Source: Planctomycetota bacterium | GTDB taxonomy: Bacteria > Planctomycetota > MHYJ01 > WSZJ01 | Assembly: GCA_038060895.1 (NCBI GenBank) | Contig: JBBTCT010000022.1 | Coordinates: 288,001 to 352,000, forward strand | Direction: 5' to 3' | DNA length: 64,000 nt | Shown here: one piece after another, positions 41,780 to 51,865 of the stretch | Numbering within the stretch: the stretch's first letter is position 1 | Layout: the number at the start of each line of letters is the position of its first letter | Notes under the pieces: model-generated | The model's database searches: none | What the model was told of the DNA's origin: nothing | Seen by the model: the letters and a program-made list of their open reading frames with translations, nothing else | Made by a program: the position numbers and the translations under genes

Positions 41780-43534
41780 ATGAAGACACTCCTCCTCGCG
41801 CTGACTCTCCTGACGCTCGCTGGCTGCGCTTCGAGCGAAAAACCGTCTCCCGCTCCAACCGAGGTCGCGTGGCAACCGTGGTCGGACGCCGCGTTCGAGC
41901 GAGCGAAGCGAGAAGGCAAACTCGTGCTCCTCGATCTGGGCGCTGTCTGGTGCCACTGGTGTCACGTGATGGATCGCGAGACGTACGGCGACCCCGGGGT
42001 TGCGAACTACATGGGCGAGCACTTCGTCGCGATTCACGTAAACCAGGACGAGCGCCCGGACCTCGCGAACCGCTACGAATACTATGGATGGCCTGCCACG
42101 ATCCTTTTCGCTGCGGACGGCACGGAGCTTGGAAAGTTCCGGGGTTTCATGCCGCCGAAGCGGCTGCTCGCTGTGTTGCAGGCGTTCGTGGCGGACCCGA
42201 CGCCTGGGCCGTCGGCGCTGGAACGCGAGCCGGACGTTGCCGCGGCGCCCGCGACGTTCGCGAAGGAACTCGACGACGCGCTTCATGATAAATGGGCGGC
42301 CGCCTACGACCACAAAGCGCAGGGCTGGGGCACGGTCCACAAGTACCTCGACCCCGACTGCGTCGAACTTGCGATTGCCGAGGGGCGTGACGACATGGCG
42401 CGCGGGACGCTGGATGCCATGCTCCAGCTGATCGACCCGGTCTGGGGCGGCGTCTACCAGTACTCTGACGGCGGCGTCTGGACCAACCCGCACTTCGAGA
42501 AAATCATGTCGTTCCAGGCGGAGGACATGCGGATTTTCGCGCTGGCGTACCGGGTCTATGGCGAAGAGAAGTACCTGGTGGCTGCACGAGACATCGAGCG
42601 ATACCTGCTCACGTTCCTGAAGTCGCCGGAGGGCGCGTTTTACGCGAGCCAGGACGCCGACCTGGTGCAGGGCGAACACGGTGGCGACTACTTTTCGCTC
42701 GGCGATTCGCAGCGGCGGGCGAAGGGAGTGCCCCGAGTTGACACGCGCGTCTACGCCCGGGAAAACGGATGGGCGGTCGTTGGGCTGGCGAGCCTTTACC
42801 GGGTCACGGGTGACCTCTCGACCCTGGAAGCGGCGATTCGAGCCGCGGAATGGACGCTGGCCCACCGCGGCACGGCAGAAGGCGGTTTCCGCCACGGCGA
42901 GTTCGATTCCGGCGGACCGTTTCTCGCCGACACCCTCGCCATGGGGCGCGCCTTTTTCGAACTGGGCCAGGTGACCCAGGACGCAAAGTGGCTCGAACGA
43001 AGCGAGGCGGCCGTGCGCTTCATGGAGCAAAACTTCGGGAGCCGTTCCGGCGAACGCGCCGGCTATGCGACTGCCGTTGCCGCACGTTCCAGCGGAAAGC
43101 CGTGGGAGCCCACGCCCCAGGTTGACGAGAACATCGCCTTCGCGAGGCTGTCCCTCCGGTTGTGGGGGACCGGCCGCCTGGACTTGCGAGACTCCGCGGA
43201 CCACGCCCTGAAGTACCTGGCCGGGGTTGCCGGTGACGCGAGCGGAGTCCGGGCCGCGGGGATTCTCCTGGCCTCGCGAGAACGGGCAGGGGAGGCCCAG
43301 TCCATCGAGGTCGTGGGCGAACTCGCCGACGAGCGAACGACCGCCTTGTTGCGCGCGGCGCTCTCGGCGCCCGTCGGGTACTCCCTGGTCCGCCTGCTCG
43401 GTCGCGCCAATACCGAATACCCCATGGACAACGGAACCCCCACCGCCTACGTGTGTACCGTTTCGGCCTGCAAGGGTCCCTTCCACGACCCCGTCGCCCT
43501 CCGAAAGGCCGCCGCCACCCCTCGCCGGCGCTGA
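41780..43534 (+). CDS. DUF255 thioredoxin-domain lipoprotein (YyaL/SPATA20-like)
   Basis: LAGC lipobox, WQPWSDAAFERAK, WCHWCHVM, ERPD, GWP, PHFEK, FYASQDAD, AYVC..C. Confidence 0.9.
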   Translation: MKTLLLALTLLTLAGCASSEKPSPAPTEVAWQPWSDAAFERAKREGKLVLLDLGAVWCHWCHVMDRETYGDPGVANYMGEHFVAIHVNQDERPDLANRYEYYGWPATILFAADGTELGKFRGFMPPKRLLAVLQAFVADPTPGPSALEREPDVAAAPATFAKELDDALHDKWAAAYDHKAQGWGTVHKYLDPDCVELAIAEGRDDMARGTLDAMLQLIDPVWGGVYQYSDGGVWTNPHFEKIMSFQAEDMRIFALAYRVYGEEKYLVAARDIERYLLTFLKSPEGAFYASQDADLVQGEHGGDYFSLGDSQRRAKGVPRVDTRVYARENGWAVVGLASLYRVTGDLSTLEAAIRAAEWTLAHRGTAEGGFRHGEFDSGGPFLADTLAMGRAFFELGQVTQDAKWLERSEAAVRFMEQNFGSRSGERAGYATAVAARSSGKPWEPTPQVDENIAFARLSLRLWGTGRLDLRDSADHALKYLAGVAGDASGVRAAGILLASRERAGEAQSIEVVGELADERTTALLRAALSAPVGYSLVRLLGRANTEYPMDNGTPTAYVCTVSACKGPFHDPVALRKAAATPRRR

Positions 43535-43709
43535 CTTCAGCCGCAGGCCGATCCGATCCGATATAGTGGGCTCACGCGCCGGGAATTTTGGGCCCCCACG
43601 GTCCGTTCGGGTTCCCGTCGCACCTCTCCCGGTTCCGGACTCGCGGTCCTCACGGCCGCCGGATCGGCCCCCCGTTGCGGGCCAAGGTATCTCTAGGGGA
43701 CGTCAAAAC

Positions 43710-44153
43710 ATGTTGAGAGCCCTCGTTGTCTGTTGCGCCGTAGTGTTCGGAGGCGCAATCCTCGCTGGTTGTTCGAGCGAGGAAAAGCAGGAGCAGAAGG
43801 CGTGCGCCGACTGCGAAAAGGCCGGCGCCGGCAAGATGTGCGACGCGTGCCAGAAGTCTCACGCGGCGGAGTGCGCGAAGGCGTGCGCGAAGTGCAAGGC
43901 AGCGGGCGAAGGCAAGATGTGCGCCGACTGCCAGAAGTACATGCGCGACTGCGCGACGTCGAAGGCGTGCGAGATGTGCAAGAAGGAAGGTCCGGGGCAG
44001 GTTTGCGCCACGTGCCAGAAGGGAATGCACGCGGACTGCGCGGCGAAGTGCGAGAAGTGCAAGGCCGCCGGCGAGGGCAAGATGTGCGCAGATTGCGAGA
44101 AGGTGTGCCGCGCAAAGATGGACAAGGAAGGTTGCGGCGACTGCTGCAAGTAG
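43710..44153 (+). CDS. Cys-rich metallothionein-like lipoprotein (four CxxC-x8-CxxC units)
   Basis: LAGC lipobox; 24 Cys in the mature part; repeat CxxC(K/E)xxGxG(K/Q)(M/V)CxxC(Q/E)K. Confidence 0.8.
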   Translation: MLRALVVCCAVVFGGAILAGCSSEEKQEQKACADCEKAGAGKMCDACQKSHAAECAKACAKCKAAGEGKMCADCQKYMRDCATSKACEMCKKEGPGQVCATCQKGMHADCAAKCEKCKAAGEGKMCADCEKVCRAKMDKEGCGDCCK

Positions 44154-44266: not shown

Positions 44267-44518
44267 ATGTTGAAGAGTGCGTCGAAAGCCGTTGCCATCC
44301 TGGCGCTGGCGCTGTCCCTTCCCGGCTGCATCTCGCTGGCGATCGGCGACAACTCGAGCAAGAGGGCCCGCGCCGAGTGCACGAGCTGTGGGAAGGATCT
44401 GCACGACCAGTTGTGCGAAGGCTGCCAGAAAGAGAAGTGGGACGCCGCGTGTGGCGAGTGCGCGAAGCTCGGATCCGGGAAAATGTGCCCGGCGTGCCAG
44501 GAAAAGGCGGGGAAGTAG
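44267..44518 (+). CDS. Small Cys-rich lipoprotein (two CxxC-x8-CxxC units)
   Basis: AAGGAG SD; LPGC lipobox; CTSC-x8-CEGC and CGEC-AKLGSGKM-CPAC. Confidence 0.82.
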   Translation: MLKSASKAVAILALALSLPGCISLAIGDNSSKRARAECTSCGKDLHDQLCEGCQKEKWDAACGECAKLGSGKMCPACQEKAGK

Positions 44519-46462: not shown

Positions 46463-48136
46463 TTGGTGGAACGCACGCGGCGCACCGTCGACACTGGGCC
46501 CGTGCGCTACGGCTTCGTTCTCGACCAGGACAAATGCATCGGCTGCCACGCGTGCACGGTCGCGTGCAAGGAAGAGCACAACGTTCCGCTGGGGGTGTTC
46601 CGGACGTACGTGAAGTACGTGGAGAAGGGGAAGTTCCCGGACACGGAGCGGAAGTTCGCGGTCATCCGCTGTAACCAGTGCGACGACGCGCCTTGCATGA
46701 CGATCTGCCCGACCGCCGCGCTTTTCCGCCGCGACAACGGCATCGTCGACTTCGACAAGGACGCGTGCATCGGCTGCAAGGCGTGCATGCAGGCCTGCCC
46801 GTACGACGCGCTCTACATCGACCCGGCGACGCAGACGGCGGCAAAGTGCAACTACTGCGCGCACCGGGTGGAGAAAGGGATGGAGCCCGCGTGCGTGATC
46901 GTGTGTCCCGAGCAGGCGATCATCACGGGGGACCTCGACAATCCTGCGAGCCGCATCTCGACGTACGTTGCGAGCGGGAAGACGACGGTGCGCAAGCCGG
47001 AGAAGGGGACGCGGCCGAAGGTTCACTACAAGGGCGCCGACCCGGCGACGCTGAACCCTTCGCTCACGCACGTCCTCGGCGGCCAGATGTGGGCGGCCGC
47101 GACGGAGAAAGAGGCGACCTTCGCGGCGATGCAGGTGATGGGCCGCGGGCCGGGAAGCGGCGTGCCGCCCCCGATGGACATGGCGCGAACGGTGATGGAC
47201 ACGGCGAAAGAGCGCGCGCCTTGGGGGTGGAAGGTTTGGGCCTACCTGTGGACCAAGTCGATCGCCGCGGGCGCGATGGGCATCGCGGGGGTCGCCGTCG
47301 GCTGCAGTGTGCCGGGAACGGACCGGCTGATGGGCCCAATCGCTTCCGGCATCGCGCTTGTGTTCACGGCACTCACGTGCCTTCTGCTCGTCCTCGACCT
47401 CAAGCGTCCGGAGCGCTTCTACCTCATCCTCACCCGCCCCAACTGGAGTTCCTGGCTCGTCTGGGGGACGCTCGCGCTCATGGCGTTCTCGGGCGTCTGC
47501 GCGTTGTGGTTCGTGGCGTCGCTCGCGGGCTGGACCGGGCTGATGAAGGCTCTCGCGTGGCCCGCTGTCCTGTTCTCGGCCGGGGCGGCGGGATACTCGG
47601 CCTTCCTGTTCAGGCAAGCGAGGGGTCGCGACTTCTGGCTGAGCCCGTTACTGCTCGTGCAGCTTCTCATCGCCGCTGCGCTCGCCGGGGCGGCGACACT
47701 GCTCATCACGCAGCAATTCTTGAATCTCTTCGAACGCGGGTACGTCCCCGAAGTCACCCTTGGAACCCGGTATGCATTCGACTCGCACCGCACATACTCC
47801 AAAGGGGCGCTTGAGAGGGTGCTCCGCACCGGTTGGCTGGAGACCTGCCTCCTGGGATCCCTGCTGGCCCAACTGGTCATTCTCATTGCGGAAGTGGTGG
47901 TGCCCCACGGCAGCGCCGATTCTCGACGCGCCGTCCGTTTGCTGACCCATGGGGCCTGCGCCGCCCCGTTCTGGGGCGCGGCCGTTCTCGGGGGCATTGC
48001 CCTTCCGCTCGCGTTGGTGGCGACTTTCAGGCACGTCGTCGCCGCGGATCTCTTCGCCGCAGCGCTCGCGCTTGCTGGCCTGCTGATCTACGAGCATCTC
48101 TGGATCAAAGTCGGCCAGTCAGTGCCGCTGAGCTAG
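46463..48136 (+). CDS. Fused 4Fe-4S dicluster (PsrB/NrfC) + NrfD/PsrC membrane subunit
   Basis: CIGCHAC, CNQC..C..CP, CIGCKAC..CP, KCNYC..C..CP; WGWKVWAYLW, DLKRPERF, SSWL, multiple TMs. Confidence 0.92.
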   Translation: MVERTRRTVDTGPVRYGFVLDQDKCIGCHACTVACKEEHNVPLGVFRTYVKYVEKGKFPDTERKFAVIRCNQCDDAPCMTICPTAALFRRDNGIVDFDKDACIGCKACMQACPYDALYIDPATQTAAKCNYCAHRVEKGMEPACVIVCPEQAIITGDLDNPASRISTYVASGKTTVRKPEKGTRPKVHYKGADPATLNPSLTHVLGGQMWAAATEKEATFAAMQVMGRGPGSGVPPPMDMARTVMDTAKERAPWGWKVWAYLWTKSIAAGAMGIAGVAVGCSVPGTDRLMGPIASGIALVFTALTCLLLVLDLKRPERFYLILTRPNWSSWLVWGTLALMAFSGVCALWFVASLAGWTGLMKALAWPAVLFSAGAAGYSAFLFRQARGRDFWLSPLLLVQLLIAAALAGAATLLITQQFLNLFERGYVPEVTLGTRYAFDSHRTYSKGALERVLRTGWLETCLLGSLLAQLVILIAEVVVPHGSADSRRAVRLLTHGACAAPFWGAAVLGGIALPLALVATFRHVVAADLFAAALALAGLLIYEHLWIKVGQSVPLS

Positions 48137-48157
48137 GCGGCTGCGAAGAAGACGAAC

Positions 48158-48256
48158 TTGAGGTTGCAGATTGCAACCTCAAAGCCAGCGTGCCTTTGAA
48201 GTCGCAATTTGCGATTTCAAGTTGGATGGATTTGATATTCCAAATTGGAATATCAA
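48158..48256 (+). repeat. Array of three different 25-bp palindromes (ORF6N variable-segment copies)
   Basis: 48158 TTGAGGTTGCA-GAT-TGCAACCTCAA; 48196 TTGAAGTCGCA-ATT-TGCGATTTCAA; 48232 TTGATATTCCA-AAT-TGGAATATCAA. Confidence 0.9.
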
Positions 48257-48263
48257 GGCGCAA

Positions 48264-48794
48264 CTACCGCGTCCCATGGAACCCGATCCGCTTCGGCCCG
48301 CGTCCGCGCGGCGGGTTCACGAGCTGGCGGATTGCGGCAAAAATGCCCTGTATCGCCTCGTCGTGGGTGCCGACGCGTCGCTCCAGCTCCGAGAGTTTTC
48401 GCGAGATCTCCTGCTGCGTCGCCACGATCTCGCGCGTACGAATGAAGGCGCGCATGATCGCGATGTTGACGAGGGTGGCGCGATCGCTGCGCAGGACGCT
48501 GGAGAGCATGGCCACCCCGTGCTCGGTGAAGGCGAAAGGGAGGGTTCGGCGTCCACCTCTTCCGTTTGAGGTGCCAATCTGGCACATCAAACCCGAGGCT
48601 TCTTCGTCCGTGAGCCGGAACATGAAATCCGGCGGGAAGCGACCGGCGTTCCGCTTTACCGCCCGGTTGAGGCCGGAAGTCCGGACGCCGTACATCCGGG
48701 CAAGGTCGTTGTCCAGCAGCACCCTCTGTCCGCGAACACGAACGATGAGATGCTCGACACTTTCGACTGGGATCATGACTTTCAGCCCGCTCAT
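48264..48794 (-). CDS. ORF6N domain DNA-binding protein
   Basis: IVRVRGQRVLLDNDLARMYGV, LNRAVKRN..RFPPDFMFRLT, PFAFTEHGVAMLSSVLRS, VNIAIMRAF, coiled coil, KRIGF end; GGAG SD. Confidence 0.93.
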   Translation of the reverse strand: MSGLKVMIPVESVEHLIVRVRGQRVLLDNDLARMYGVRTSGLNRAVKRNAGRFPPDFMFRLTDEEASGLMCQIGTSNGRGGRRTLPFAFTEHGVAMLSSVLRSDRATLVNIAIMRAFIRTREIVATQQEISRKLSELERRVGTHDEAIQGIFAAIRQLVNPPRGRGPKRIGFHGTR

Positions 48795-48923
48795 GCGCTC
48801 CTCCAGGAACTGGAATGGGGAAGTCTCTTCAGCACGAACGGGGCATCGTAGGCACGGAGAGAATTGGAATGCAATCCGTCGCCGGCAGATTTCCTGCGAT
48901 TCGAGCTTGAACGCGCTCCCAAC

Positions 48924-48986
48924 TTGAGATCACAGATTGTGATGTCAAGTCAGGGCGGGACGGGTGGTCGCAGATTGCGACCGCCT
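48924..48986 (+). repeat. Two further 25-bp ORF6N-type palindromes
   Basis: 48924 TTGAGATCACA-GAT-TGTGATGTCAA; 48962 GGGTGGTCGCA-GAT-TGCGACCGCCT. Confidence 0.82.
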
Positions 48987-49051
48987 GCCGCCCGTATCAA
49001 GTCGTCAGAACCGTGATCGCCCCCCGCGCGCCGCATATGATCCGCCTCTCC

Positions 49052-51865
49052 ATGACGCCCCCGAACCCCCAGCCTCTTCACCCCGCCGCGCGCGAACTCG
49101 ACCCGCCGGTCGGAGGGCTCGCGGCGTATCCGCCGGTTGAAAAGTGGGACAACTGGACGGAGTACGACGCGCAGGCGTGGCCGAAGAAGGTGGAGCACAC
49201 GTACTCGCTGGTGCCGACGATCTGCTTCAACTGCGAAGCGGCGTGCGGGTTGCTGGCGTACGTGGACAAGAAGGACGGGAAGATCCAGCGGTTTGAGGGA
49301 AACCCGGAGCATCCGGGGAGTCGCGGGCGGAATTGTGCGAAGGGGCCGGCGACGCTGAACCAGGTGTACGATCCTGAGCGGATTCTTTATCCGCTCAAGC
49401 GGAACGGGAAGCGTGGCGAAGGGAAGTGGAAACGGGTGACGTGGGACGAGGTACTGACGGACATCGGCGGGCGGATCCGGAAGGCGCTGATGGAGAACCG
49501 GCAGCGCGAGATCATGTACCACGTGGGGCGGCCGGGGCACGAGCTGATTTACAACCAGCGGGTGCTGCATGCGTGGGGGATCGACGGGCACAACTCGCAC
49601 ACGAACGTTTGCTCAGCGGGGGCGCGGGCGGGGTACGCGTTCTGGATGGGGATCGACCGGCCTTCGCCGGATCATGCGAACTCGAAGTTCATGCTGCTCC
49701 TGAGCGCGCATCTCGAGACGGGGCATTACTTCAACCCGCACGCGCAGCGGATCATGGAGGCGAAGGAACGCGGCGTGAAGATGGCCGTGATCGACACGCG
49801 TCTCTCGAACACCGCTTCGATGGCCGACTGGTGGCTGCCGACCTGGCCGGGGACGGAAGCGGCGCTGTTGCTGGCGCTCGCGAACGTGATGATCCGCGAC
49901 AAGACGTACGACCGGGAGTTCGTGCGGCGGTGGGTGAACTGGGAAGAGTTCCTGCGCGAGGAGCGGCCGGGCGTTGCCTCGACGTTTGAGGCGTTCGAAG
50001 CGGAGCTGGCGAAGTTGTACGCGGAGTTCACCCCGGAGTACGCCGAGAAGGAATGCGGCGTGCCGGCGAAGACGATCCTCGAGGTCGCGGCCGAGATCGC
50101 GAAGGCGGGGTCGGCGTTCGCGACGCACGTGTGGCGCAACGCGGCGGCGGGAAACCTCGGCGGTTGGCAGGTGTCGCGCGCGCTGGAACTGCTCGTTGTC
50201 CTCGCGGGCGCCGTCGGCACGAACGGCGGCACCGTCCCGAACCAGTGGAACAAGTTCACGCCGAAGCCGCCGCTGATGCCGCCGCCGTCGAAGGTGTGGA
50301 GCGAGCTGCTCTACCCGAAGGAGTACCCTCTCGCGTTTTTCGAGATGTCGTTCCTGCTGCCGCATTTCCTGAAAGAAGGTCGCGGCAAGCTCGATACGTA
50401 TTTCACGCGCGTCTACAACCCCGTGTGGACTAACCCCGACGGCATGACGTGGCTCGAGGTCCTCACCGACGAGTCGAAAGTCGGATGCCACGTGTGCCTC
50501 TCGCCGACGTGGAGCGAGACCGCGTGGTACGCGGACTACGTGCTCCCGATGGGCCACGGCTCCGAGCGCCACGACCTCATGAGCCAGGAGACGCACGCGG
50601 CCAAGTGGATCGGCTTCCGCCAGCCGGTGCAGCGCGTGTGGCTCGAAAAACAGGGGAAAAAATTCAACTCGACCTGGGAAGCGCACGAAGCGTCCGGCCT
50701 CGGCCAGGTCTGGGAAGAAGAAGAGTTCTGGATCGAGCTGTCGTGGAAGATCGATCCCGACGGCGCGCTCGGCATCCGCAAGTACTTCGAGTCGCCCTTC
50801 GAGCCTGGCAAGAAGATGGAAATCTCCGAGTTCTACCGGTGGATCTTCGAGAACAGCGTGCCGGGGCTGCCGGAGAAGGCGAAGAAGGAGGGACTGACGC
50901 CGCTGGAGTTCATGCGCAAGTACGGCGCGTTCCTGGTCTCGGAGGGGACGGTGCTGGGGCACGAGCAGGCCGTGCCGAGCGAGGGCGCGACGACGGACCC
51001 CGTGACGAAAGTCGTCTCGAAATCCGGTGCGCCCGTCGGCGTCGAAATCGACGGGAAGCCGCTCGCCGGATTCCCGACGCCGTCGCGCAAGCTCGAGTTC
51101 TACTCGAAGACGCTCAAGGACTGGAAATGGCCGGAGCACGCGCTCCCCGGCTACATCAGGAGCCACGTCCACCCTTCGAATTTCGACATCGCGAAGGGCG
51201 AGATGCTCCTCCTGCCGACCTTCCGCCTCCCGACGCTCATCCACACGCGTACCGGCAACGCGAAATGGCTCATCGAGCTCTCGCACTCCAACCCGCTCTG
51301 GCTCAACACCGGCGACGCGGCGCGCTTCAAGGTGGGCATGGGACACCTCCTCAAGGTCCACACGGAGATCGGGTGGTTCATCGACAAGGTCTGGGTGACC
51401 GAAGCGATCCGCCCGGGCGTCGTCGCGTGCTCGCACCACATCGGGCGGTGGCGCGTGATTGAGGAGCAGGCCGGGAAATGGTGCACCGCGCTCGTTGACC
51501 TGAAGGAGCAGTCGGCGGGGAAGTGGAAGATGCGCCACATCCACGGCGTGCAGCCCTTCAAGAGCAGTGACCCCGACTCCGAGCGCATCTCGTGGACGGA
51601 TGCGGGTGTGCACCAGAACCTGACGTTCCCCGTCCAGCCCGACCCGATTAGCGGGCAGCACTGCTGGCACCAGAAGGTGCGCGTCGAGAAGCCCGCGGCC
51701 GGCGACAAGTACGGGGATATCTTCGTCGATACGGCGAAGTCGATGGAGGTGTACCGTCGGTGGCTCCAACTCGCGCGGCCGGCTCCGGGGCCGGGAGGAC
51801 TTCGGCGGCCACGGTGGCTGCCGCGGGCGTACATGCCGGCGAAGGAGACGTACGAAATCCGGTGA
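49052..51865 (+). CDS. Molybdopterin oxidoreductase catalytic subunit (PsrA/PhsA-like, no Tat signal)
   Basis: CFNCEAAC...CAKG 4Fe-4S motif, ERILYPLKR, WDE, HTNVCS, SETAWYADYVLP, C-terminal binding domain; start uncertain (49013-49052). Confidence 0.92.
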   Translation: MTPPNPQPLHPAARELDPPVGGLAAYPPVEKWDNWTEYDAQAWPKKVEHTYSLVPTICFNCEAACGLLAYVDKKDGKIQRFEGNPEHPGSRGRNCAKGPATLNQVYDPERILYPLKRNGKRGEGKWKRVTWDEVLTDIGGRIRKALMENRQREIMYHVGRPGHELIYNQRVLHAWGIDGHNSHTNVCSAGARAGYAFWMGIDRPSPDHANSKFMLLLSAHLETGHYFNPHAQRIMEAKERGVKMAVIDTRLSNTASMADWWLPTWPGTEAALLLALANVMIRDKTYDREFVRRWVNWEEFLREERPGVASTFEAFEAELAKLYAEFTPEYAEKECGVPAKTILEVAAEIAKAGSAFATHVWRNAAAGNLGGWQVSRALELLVVLAGAVGTNGGTVPNQWNKFTPKPPLMPPPSKVWSELLYPKEYPLAFFEMSFLLPHFLKEGRGKLDTYFTRVYNPVWTNPDGMTWLEVLTDESKVGCHVCLSPTWSETAWYADYVLPMGHGSERHDLMSQETHAAKWIGFRQPVQRVWLEKQGKKFNSTWEAHEASGLGQVWEEEEFWIELSWKIDPDGALGIRKYFESPFEPGKKMEISEFYRWIFENSVPGLPEKAKKEGLTPLEFMRKYGAFLVSEGTVLGHEQAVPSEGATTDPVTKVVSKSGAPVGVEIDGKPLAGFPTPSRKLEFYSKTLKDWKWPEHALPGYIRSHVHPSNFDIAKGEMLLLPTFRLPTLIHTRTGNAKWLIELSHSNPLWLNTGDAARFKVGMGHLLKVHTEIGWFIDKVWVTEAIRPGVVACSHHIGRWRVIEEQAGKWCTALVDLKEQSAGKWKMRHIHGVQPFKSSDPDSERISWTDAGVHQNLTFPVQPDPISGQHCWHQKVRVEKPAAGDKYGDIFVDTAKSMEVYRRWLQLARPAPGPGGLRRPRWLPRAYMPAKETYEIR

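Follow-up and report, generated by a model that had tools for sequence, protein, structure and literature searches.

A palindrome inside ORF6N genes covaries with the predicted recognition helix of the encoded protein: a candidate private operator within the reading frame

An ORF6N gene with one internal and five flanking palindromes

We analyzed a 64,000-nt stretch of the genome of a Planctomycetota bacterium (GenBank assembly GCA_038060895.1, contig JBBTCT010000022.1, positions 288,001 to 352,000), referred to below as the window. The assembly (G000 in the locus comparisons) comprises 5.4 Mb in 47 contigs, has a G+C content of 66%, and is 86.5% complete. An earlier note, made from the sequence alone, had drawn attention to a small unit in which a gene for an ORF6N-domain protein is accompanied by short palindromes. 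The gene (48264..48794, minus strand) encodes 176 amino acids and matches PF10543 with an E value of 1.2e-31 (109.2 bits against a gathering cutoff of 27.8), residues 17 to 100 aligning to positions 3 to 86 of the 86-position profile. Its product combines a winged-helix-like N-terminal domain with a long helix toward the C terminus and ends in a conserved RIGF tail. The protein matched no NCBIfam family, and a sequence search of the PDB returned only coiled-coil noise.

The gene is carried, in antisense orientation, by an insert of ~0.9 kb (48137..49054, no strand assigned) that separates a Fer4/NrfD fusion gene (46463-48136) from a molybdopterin oxidoreductase gene and reaches from the stop codon of the former to the start of the latter. 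In a genome of the same genus (G006), the empty site consists of the stop codon, 2 bases, and then the ATG of the oxidoreductase gene. The empty-site comparison puts the right end of the unit, which is uncertain, at ~49036-49054 and not at 49012, as had been proposed. Among nine related loci that contain the operon junction, only G002 has an ORF6N gene there, in a gap of 875 bp; in all 8 of the other relatives the two genes are adjacent (~124 bp apart in one case); the empty site that the earlier note had proposed to look for does exist. Since L003 does not differ from the G002 locus over the compared stretch, the two are counted as one observation. The 0.9-kb unit is a solitary, horizontally acquired insertion in a molybdoenzyme operon.

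Repeat search and pattern matching together confirmed that one palindrome lies inside the gene and five flank it. The pattern TTGA-N5-CA-N3-TG-N5-TCAA occurs at 48158, 48196, 48232, 48566, and 48924 and in none of 100 dinucleotide shuffles; below, palindromes are assigned to classes by the bases at positions 8-9 of the arm. The internal palindrome (48566..48590, minus strand; 11-3-11 with one mismatch; positions 8-9, GC) encodes L69 to S76 and is extended by the repeat search to 48564-48592 (13-3-13, 92%). It specifies the peptide LMCQIGTS, or LRCQSGTS when flipped, as originally described, and its core, GTGCCA-N3-TGGCAC, occurs once in the assembly, inside the gene itself. Downstream of the gene lie flank palindromes 1 (48158..48182; 11-3-11, 100%; arms GGTTG, class TG), 2 (48196..48220; 12-1-12, 92%; arms AGTCG/AATCG, class CG), and 3 (48232..48256, 8 bp past the stop codon; 12-1-12, 100%; arms TATTC, class TC). 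Upstream lie flank palindrome 4, the fifth in window order (48924..48948; arms GATCA/CATCA, class CA; extended to 48922-48950, 13-3-13, 92%), and flank palindrome 5, the sixth in window order. The latter is present as claimed, at 48963..48985 rather than 48962; it is weaker (10-3-10, 90%), lacks the TTGA/TCAA ends, and reads GGTGGTCGCA-GAT-TGCGACCGCC, which is GG plus class CG. No strand is assigned to the flank copies, and spacings in the window are 38, 36, and 39 bp. With TG, CG, TC, CA, and CG in the flanks and GC inside the gene, all five main classes meet at one locus, and by the code described below none of the flank copies is cognate to the resident protein.

All of the palindromes recur without a single difference in contigs from two further studies; the array is therefore not the assembly artifact that the earlier note had considered. 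A scan of the 5.4-Mb assembly found palindromes of this kind only at the window locus, and a dispersed, genome-wide REP family was rejected on that ground.

The internal palindrome is conserved across the ORF6N family in two reading frames

A scan of one genome per species gave at least 600 candidate stretches, of which at least 545 encode a relative, and the best 80 were taken. These are 46 to 68% identical to the window protein, and their record titles name Planctomycetota, Verrucomicrobiota, Acidobacteriota, Bacteroidota, Omnitrophota, Elusimicrobiota, Pseudomonadota, Nitrospirota, candidate phyla, and others. The first set comprised 82 loci with 95 ORF6N open reading frames (ORFs) covering the palindrome region, and a palindrome occupies the same gene position in 93 of these 95. 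In 77 ORFs it has at most 2 mismatches in the aligned 11-3-11 frame (42 are perfect), and 16 of the remaining 18 carry it in a shifted register. Eleven of these 16 have the same core (e.g., GGTCGCA-AAT-TGCGACC) read one base out of frame, so that it encodes VVANCDHL or LVTNCHRF instead of the usual LRSQIATS. The family consensus bears out the remark in the earlier note that the palindrome-encoded segment is variable among homologues.

Codon choice at the palindrome ends is skewed: codon 1 is TTG in 64 of the 77 genes and codon 8 is TCA in 62, while family-wide these codons account for 20% of Leu and 22% of Ser codons, respectively. When only the fixed letters of the pattern were required, the N5 arms had a mean mismatch of 0.42 in genes and 0.75 outside genes, compared to 2.3 and 2.4 for re-paired arms (minima of 2,000 shuffles, 1.83 and 1.71); the arms thus co-vary to keep pairing, as had been claimed for the window. 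Taken together, the frame shift, codon choice, and arm pairing mean that selection acts on the nucleic acid and not on the peptide.

The ORF6N family is widely spread by horizontal transfer. We found no conserved neighbor gene over the 82 loci, the top clusters being antisense frames of the gene itself, and 12 loci contain tandem genes and N-terminal fragments. Relatives occur in 25 plasmid records and are encoded by 190 of 273 candidate stretches in viral contigs; a tblastn search with the window protein matched 4 of 50,697 phage records. On two Segatella copri plasmids, L093 (2955 bp) and L094 (4140 bp), the only annotated genes are one for a replication initiator and an ORF6N gene, and both of the ORF6N genes carry the internal palindrome. 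On a Legionella oakridgensis plasmid (L095, 2504-3430), an ORF6N gene encoding a 298-amino-acid protein with a different C-terminal half adjoins genes for a site-specific integrase and a YfjI-family protein; it has the internal palindrome, and a second one of another class lies 6 bp past its stop codon.

Arm sequence follows the predicted recognition helix

An AlphaFold 2 (AF2) model of the window protein (mean predicted local distance difference test [pLDDT] score, 79.8) has a helix-turn-helix formed by helices at residues 28-35 and 39-48, strands at 58-60 and 87-89 with helix 63-73 and loop 73-80 between them, and a long helix, 104-141, after the strands. The LxxQxxxS segment encoded by the internal palindrome, for which the note had asked for an AlphaFold placement, is predicted to form the end of helix 63-73 and the following loop, where pLDDT is under 50; this would be the position of a wing. 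The predicted recognition helix comprises residues 39-49 (TSGLNRAVKRN; 48648..48680, minus strand), with S40, G41, R44, A45, and R48 at the specificity positions, and helix 39-48 is encoded ~60-90 nt upstream of the palindrome. A homodimer prediction scored 0.02, which counts neither for nor against dimerization.

Mutual information was calculated between the arm bases and every protein column in a training set of 68 genes, drawn from the 95 ORFs and having at most 1 palindrome mismatch. With the palindrome-encoded residues set aside, residue 44 stood out (z = 26), followed by residues 41 (17.5), 40 (15.3), and 45 (7.3); no other column exceeded 5.1. The pairings are close to deterministic. 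At positions 8-9, CA goes with Q44 in 29/29 training genes, CG with E44 (together with R41) in 12/13, TC with K44 (together with N41) in 10/11, GC with R44 in 10/10, and TG or TT with L44 in 5/5, and at positions 5-6, GG goes with K40 in 36/36. The internal arms of the window gene, TGTGC and GGTGC, are cognate to its S40, G41, and R44. Preferences of Gln for adenine, Arg and Lys for guanine, Glu for cytosine, and Leu for the thymine methyl group are textbook amino acid-base pairings, and the helix-arm pairings fit them. Helical periodicity would put residues 40, 41, 44, 45, and 48 on one face of the helix, and their order would match the order of the bases from outer to inner arm.

The same code is kept in the genes that read the palindrome in the other frame: GGTGGTCGCA accompanies K40 R41 E44 in 2 genes, GGTCACA accompanies Q44 in 1, and GGTGCCA accompanies R44 in 1, while a further class of this frame, GGTGACA, goes with R44 plus Y/H41 and Q45 (7 genes with a called palindrome). 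As these genes encode a different peptide at the palindrome, the helix covaries with the DNA and not with the wing residues.

The training rule was then applied to an independent set of 80 metagenome and 80 viral loci, which contain 156 ORFs representing 132 unique genes and 104 unique helix-site combinations; after exclusion of 9 combinations whose palindrome was short or missing, 95 were testable. Both arms fit the rule in 85 combinations, one arm fit in 5, and neither in 5. Altogether, 175 of 190 arms fit, whereas 5,000 shuffles averaged 62.5 and never exceeded 92, and K40 coincided with GG in 92 of 104 arms. Shared descent was addressed with a FastTree phylogeny of 173 nonidentical proteins with a defined site class, taken from 251 aligned rows after removal of those with unclear class or identical sequence; the alignment omitted residues 36-50 and 64-86. 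The tree implies 62 changes of site class and 60 of residue 44 (79 to 86 with shuffled labels). Independent pairs on supported branches changed in the same rather than the opposite direction 9:0 for CA/Q (P = 0.004), 5:0 for CG/E, and about 6:0 for both TC/K and GC/R.

The code extends to plasmids and phages. The two Segatella copri plasmids fit it (GGTCG-AA with R40 R41 E44 N48; TATCA-AA with Q44 N48), as do the Legionella plasmid (TATCG with R41 E44), a Bacteroides plasmid (GGTGC-AA with K40 R44 S48), a fecal phage contig, and a Fusobacterium phage antirepressor of the ORF6N+KilAC type that is 28% identical to the plasmid protein (AATCA with Q44). Comparison of these distant members suggests that R48 goes with C10-A11.

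Helix and site change together

Two viral contigs, L180 and L236, document a change of specificity. They are 80 to 93% identical over the upstream region and N-terminal coding part, including an identical upstream palindrome, and 90 to 96% identical over the C-terminal half, whereas a central stretch of ~250 nt is only 50 to 75% identical. This mosaic stretch holds both the helix (F40 N41 K44 versus R40 S41 Q44) and the internal site (TC versus CA). By comparison of the two sequences, helix and site have evidently been exchanged jointly by recombination as one module, and the upstream site, left behind in L180, is now noncognate. The orthologues of G000 and G002 show a coordinated switch of the same sort, S40 G41 R44 with GC in one and S40 N41 K44 with TATTC in the other, and the identity of the two genes is lowest in the N-terminal and central part. 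Because a joint swap leaves the outer site behind, most noncognate flank copies may be fossil operators. Likewise, the odd placement of the site within the gene would follow from the fact that a site close to the helix codons is not easily parted from its reader.

Palindromes outside ORF6N genes

The first 82 loci contain 85 palindromes of this class inside ORF6N genes. Outside the genes, 31 fall no farther than 500 bp away (0.36 per kb) and 2 are spread over the other 336 kb (0.006 per kb), in agreement with the expectation of the earlier note that the palindromes would be enriched near ORF6N genes. Most loci have no outside copy: a flank palindrome is present in 17 of the 82 and absent from 65, and the second set has 21 flank copies in 18 of 150 loci. 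In both sets, all flank arms fall within the classes known from genes. Several of the cognate copies in the second set lie 40 to 60 bp upstream of the start and look like real operators. The gene on contig C171 of G002 lacks an internal site and has two cognate palindromes just upstream of it. A degenerate internal site together with a good flank site was seen, by eye, in 2 of 6 cases, a sample too small to show an association.

The flank copies form a mixed group. The coding context of 14 of 30 copies was more ORF6N-like than all 20 flank shuffles, although some of these scores are inflated by a neighboring palindrome, and L067, L054, L026, L040, and L043 contain clear relic gene fragments. 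In the window, the plus-strand context of flank palindrome 4 resembles ORF6N residues 54-88; it beats 20/20 flank shuffles with a score inflated by the neighboring palindrome, and its alignment to the subfamily profile reaches only 8.7 bits. Pfam gave no hit for the flank-palindrome peptides, which are too short for such a search. The palindrome at 48924 is symmetric in G000 and a two-class hybrid in G002 and L003.

A flank copy may also serve another ORF6N protein. The second ORF6N protein of the window genome, on contig C24, has K40 R41 E44 and its own perfect 12-3-12 palindrome, and flank palindrome 5 fits its predicted specificity. The core GGTCGCA-N3-TGCGACC occurs twice in the assembly, in flank palindrome 5 and in the C24 paralogue, with 0.07 occurrences expected. 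Cross-control between the window gene and this paralogue is possible. Comparable matches between flank sites and same-genome paralogues were not found in the genomes of L014 and L042.

Mixed-class arrays are not confined to the window: L264 has GC, CG, and CA palindromes upstream of its gene. In that locus (contig C32 of G042, 1342-1716), five palindromes stand in a row, of classes GC, CG, CA, CA (internal), and CG; the gene is truncated, and E44 of its helix mismatches its own internal CA site. By a hand estimate, arrays are not significantly more class diverse than chance.

Transcription signals and neighboring genes

A conserved 16-nt motif, CTACGATGCCCCGTTC on the strand of the gene, lies upstream of the window gene (48837..48852, minus strand) and is common to the window, G002/L003, and the C24 paralogue, which is 52% identical; in L002 it lies at ~1400-1416, and in L003 it lies upstream of the gene. 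It is possibly a promoter or part of a 5' leader. No upstream motif was common to the other 79 loci, only close relatives and the paralogue having one. Three intrinsic-terminator-like sites were scored in the region, compared to 1.1 expected. At 48157-48183 on the minus strand, flank palindrome 1 is followed by a T-rich stretch and scores as intrinsic terminator-like for the ORF6N transcript.

On the other side of the insert, the start region of the oxidoreductase gene (49013-49054) has been changed by the insertion: the empty-site relatives begin with MNEPLHPAAR and the window gene begins with M(IRLSM)TPPNPQPLHPAAR. Translational coupling of the oxidoreductase gene to the gene upstream has been lost in the process. 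Five neighboring ORFs were scanned with Pfam, which identified EF-P, a thioredoxin-like ferredoxin, and a PQQ_2-like protein and gave no match for the other two; there was no recombinase or transposase among them, as the earlier note had said, and the scan indicated neither a prophage setting nor defense genes around the ORF6N gene. Farther away in the window, two plus-strand ORFs (43227-44153 and 44267-44518) encode cysteine-rich proteins with the repeated motif C..C.K.G.GKMC..CQK and lipoprotein-like N termini; the shorter protein, of 83 amino acids, has no Pfam match.

A predicted operator inside the gene of its reader

Because the helix-site code is nearly deterministic, the ORF6N protein most likely binds an operator inside its own gene. 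We regard it as probable, though well short of settled, that the internal palindrome is the cognate operator of the protein and that its likeliest use is autoregulation. A winged-helix ORF6N protein would bind, as a dimer on duplex DNA, a 25-bp palindrome inside its own coding sequence; residue 40 would read positions 5-6, residues 41, 44, and 45 would read positions 8-9, and residue 48 would read positions 10-11. Different helix residues with matching arms would then give each gene a private cognate operator. Reader and site, ~60-90 nt apart, would recombine together as a specificity module. Autoregulation would be self-contained, acting through binding in the transcribed region and sometimes helped by cognate copies near the promoter, and it would accompany the gene to any new location. 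The five flank palindromes of the window would be fossil operators from earlier swaps of specificity, fragments of relic genes, or sites that serve other ORF6N proteins. We infer the binding, the dimer, the duplex form of the site, and the autoregulation from the covariation. The window gene would accordingly be an autoregulated DNA-binding gene, possibly with a role in defense.

The earlier note had suggested a self-referential system in which the palindrome is both the operator and the code for the recognition helix. Its first half agrees with our analysis, in that the palindrome behaves as an operator inside the gene of its reader; its second half does not, as the palindrome does not encode the recognition helix.

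Several observations weigh against the operator explanation or parts of it. Matches of the model to winged-helix folds are weak (Foldseek E values, 0.13 to 0.9), as are structural Z scores, which range from 4 to 6.5 (Dachshund, 6.0; Ski-like, 5.0; Par, 4.9; Mbp1, 4.5). Five of the 95 test combinations are exceptions to the code, although two of these are probably miscalled palindromes. A scan for the sigma-70 consensus found no promoter for the ORF6N gene, and autoregulation is only the simplest reading of what binding would do. Flank copy and resident gene agree in class in only 10 of 27 cases of the first set (7.6 expected) and in 12 of 21 of the second, a count made without a shuffle control; the flank copies are therefore not simply extra operators. 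At the same time, noncoding copies keep symmetric arms though many are noncognate, and flank site 1 differs between G000 (GGTTG/CAACC) and G002 (GGTCG/CGACC) in a way that is compensated on both arms. Such symmetry is not expected of plain fossils and calls for a symmetrizing mutational process, a hairpin function, or binding by further proteins. Arms could be symmetrized without selection by template switching at quasi-palindromes, and binding by other ORF6N proteins could equally keep the copies symmetric.

One extension of the operator explanation we think unlikely but worth stating: ORF6N genes would form specificity classes comparable to immunity groups, and mixed-class arrays such as that of the window would be actively kept, either as landing sites or as a store of operator variants. 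As landing sites, they would open the locus to control by other ORF6N proteins, whether of phage, plasmid, or paralogue origin, or enable it to soak them up. As a store, they would allow fast class switching in a contest of defense and counterdefense.

Where the purpose of binding is concerned, the main alternative is a role in maintenance, like that of a centromere. The ORF6N gene would then be a single-protein partition module whose coiled coil pairs replicon copies or anchors them, and chromosomal copies would be remnants of mobile elements. This alternative, which shares the binding step with the operator explanation and differs from it only in what binding is for, strikes us as unlikely. 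It would account for the Segatella copri plasmids of 2.9 and 4.1 kb, on which Rep and a palindrome-bearing ORF6N gene are all that is annotated, for the order of a winged-helix-like N-terminal domain and the long helix 104-141 in the model, for weak structural matches to the DNA-binding domain of pSK1 Par on centromere DNA (Z = 4.9) and to RacA (Z = 4.1), and for the recurrence of site arrays beside the gene. Yet most copies are solitary and chromosomal, in unrelated contexts with no conserved neighbor; 65 of the 82 loci have a single site; the flank sites of the window are noncognate; and the fold scores are within the range of common arrangements.

According to another proposal, raised in the earlier note as a cassette library, the flank palindromes are copied into the gene or swapped with the internal site by short-patch conversion or template switching, which would rematch the operator after a change of the helix or vary the wing. 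We hold this to be improbable, even though some patterns suit it. The flank copy by the stop codon in G000 (TATTC) equals the internal arms of G002, and a G002 flank copy resembles the internal arms of G000, a reciprocity with a chance of ~5% by a rough hand estimate from arm frequencies; the G000 and G002 arrays differ by one 36- to 38-bp unit; L014 carries, past its stop codon, the internal site in exact reverse complement, and L035 does so with one change; and flank arms stay within the classes found in genes. However, contigs from four runs of three studies contained no swapped, inverted, or otherwise variant allele, bearing in mind that contigs drop rare variants. Low-depth joints from palindrome to palindrome (e.g., 48220 to 48564) did occur, joining pieces of 85 to 90% likeness with short sides; we attribute them to ORF6N genes of other organisms or to assembly-graph effects and do not take them as allele swaps. 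Moreover, conversion of the site alone would break the match to the helix, whereas the documented switch moved helix and site together over ~250 nt, and the presence of about half of the flank copies in longer relic fragments fits decay better than a library that is kept. The reciprocal pattern of G000 and G002, which is only suggestive, leaves the refined cassette idea at low odds.

It is also conceivable, though we give it a slender chance, that the palindromes function by folding into hairpins, in single-stranded DNA or in RNA, either as ends or recombination sites of a nonautonomous mobile unit (the third idea of the earlier note) or as mRNA structure. Arms covary in noncoding copies too, palindromes lie near both ends of the insert, the wide horizontal spread leaves tandem genes and fragments, and the minus-strand sequence at 48157-48183 scores as terminator-like; a hairpin stem is a duplex as well, so a monomer might bind to a hairpin. 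The helix-arm code, though, is hard to explain without direct reading of base pairs. An mRNA hairpin is expected to favor G·U pairs and a single loop orientation. Of 44 arm mismatches in internal palindromes, 5 are G·T on the sense strand, 17 are A·C, and 22 are other; 15 of the 44 gather in midstem, at arm position 5; and the loop triplets AAT (21), ATT (21), ATC (12), and GAT (6) are oriented symmetrically, with no preference for a strand. A symmetric duplex DNA site with an A/T-rich center appears to fit these features better than an RNA hairpin does. A role as mobile-unit ends is not supported: flank copies are missing from 65 of the 82 loci, the genome has no dispersed copies, and neither an HUH nor any other transposase was found in the scanned neighbors.

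That the palindrome is a by-product of coding, or chance, with no nucleic acid function can be dismissed: the family consensus LRSQIVTS does permit a perfect palindrome at the DNA level, but no shuffle matched the pattern, rare codons are chosen at both palindrome ends, genes that use another reading frame keep the palindrome while encoding a different peptide, and noncoding copies are ~60-fold enriched near genes.

Significance and relation to known systems

If binding is confirmed, ORF6N proteins would be a family-wide class of regulators, present in many phyla, plasmids, and phages, that carry the operator inside their own reading frame. Their specificity would be readable from sequence, with Q, E, K, R, or L at residue 44 standing for CA, CG, TC, GC, or TG/TT, respectively, and K40 for GG, which is rare for helix-turn-helix proteins. 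A code of this kind, if true, could be used to predict targets and to design orthogonal pairs of repressor and operator. Linkage of reader and site within ~100 nt would show how a match can survive rampant horizontal transfer and recombination. We found no account of an ORF6N arrangement with an intragenic operator in open-access papers or bioRxiv, subscription journals being outside the scope of the search.

Some known systems resemble the locus only in outline. Type III toxin-antitoxin arrays (with a 36-nt period), CRISPR, integron attC sites, dif/Xer sites, and invertase sites were considered as possible resemblances and dropped, as the units are not identical, there is no partner gene, or the odd 25-bp palindrome geometry or the consensus does not fit. 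In pilE/pilS, silent cassettes are used for gene conversion. The window locus is similar in having short, nonexpressed copies of a variable segment beside the expressed gene, and differs in that no exchange is seen in contigs, the copies are only ~36 bp, and many loci have none. Like REP/RAYT systems and IS200/IS605 ends, the gene is flanked on both sides by short palindromes with covarying arms. Unlike REP/RAYT, it comes with no HUH Y1 transposase and no dispersed copies in 5.4 Mb, and its arms follow helix residues. A REPtron was set aside because the locus has only the ORF6N gene and the palindromes are restricted to this one locus, and an IS200/IS605 or MITE-like unit was set aside because of the many loci without a flank copy, the lack of a neighboring transposase, and the single locus in the genome.

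Closer parallels exist among DNA-binding proteins. Like pSK1 Par and RacA, the window protein would join a winged-helix domain to a coiled coil, with sites by its own gene and weak structural matches, and ORF6N relatives, like the pSK1 Par type, occur on tiny plasmids. We found no sequence relationship to these proteins, however, and the ORF6N site is intragenic and the copies are mostly chromosomal. Phage antirepressors with ORF6N or KilA-N/Bro-N N-terminal domains include members of the same domain family, PF10543, and the window protein matches a PHROG antirepressor family (PHROG 4792; E = 4e-26). In the gene for the ORF6N+KilAC protein of the Fusobacterium phage, the corresponding position is occupied by a perfect 10-1-10 palindrome that fits the Q44-CA rule. 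In contrast to these antirepressors, the window protein has a coiled-coil tail in place of KilAC and lies in no prophage.

The window protein also matches the PADLOC profiles for PDC-S05, a single-gene defense candidate (E = 9.1e-51, 2.5e-48, and 3.4e-35; positions 5 to 165 of 177), and genes of the window type are, like PDC-S05, solitary, horizontally spread, and quickly diversifying. A PDC-S05 representative lowered plating of T7 and T5 ~1,000-fold and of T4 ~10-fold in E. coli B and is described with a Virulence_RhuM domain (bioRxiv 10.1101/2024.09.26.614923), the window protein being a short, 176-amino-acid form. The passages on this representative name no mechanism and no intragenic site (bioRxiv 10.1101/2024.09.26.614923). 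The window copy does not stand among defense genes. The predicted operator would provide a first mechanistic lead on this defense candidate.

The nearest precedents for the placement of the site are the phage lambda O protein, whose origin iterons lie within gene O, and Bacillus subtilis Spo0J, with a parS site within spo0J. In lambdoid phages, the iterons covary with the N-terminal domain of O, and the sites encode a tolerant linker. ORF6N genes are alike in that a DNA-binding protein would have its symmetric site, here a predicted one, in its own coding sequence; here, the site encodes the low-confidence wing loop. They differ from both systems in having one 23- to 25-bp palindrome per gene and no origin or centromere with partners, with no replication or partition partner gene nearby; and, unlike either precedent, the ORF6N site is kept across a Pfam family and many phyla, in two reading frames, with a simple code of residues and bases.

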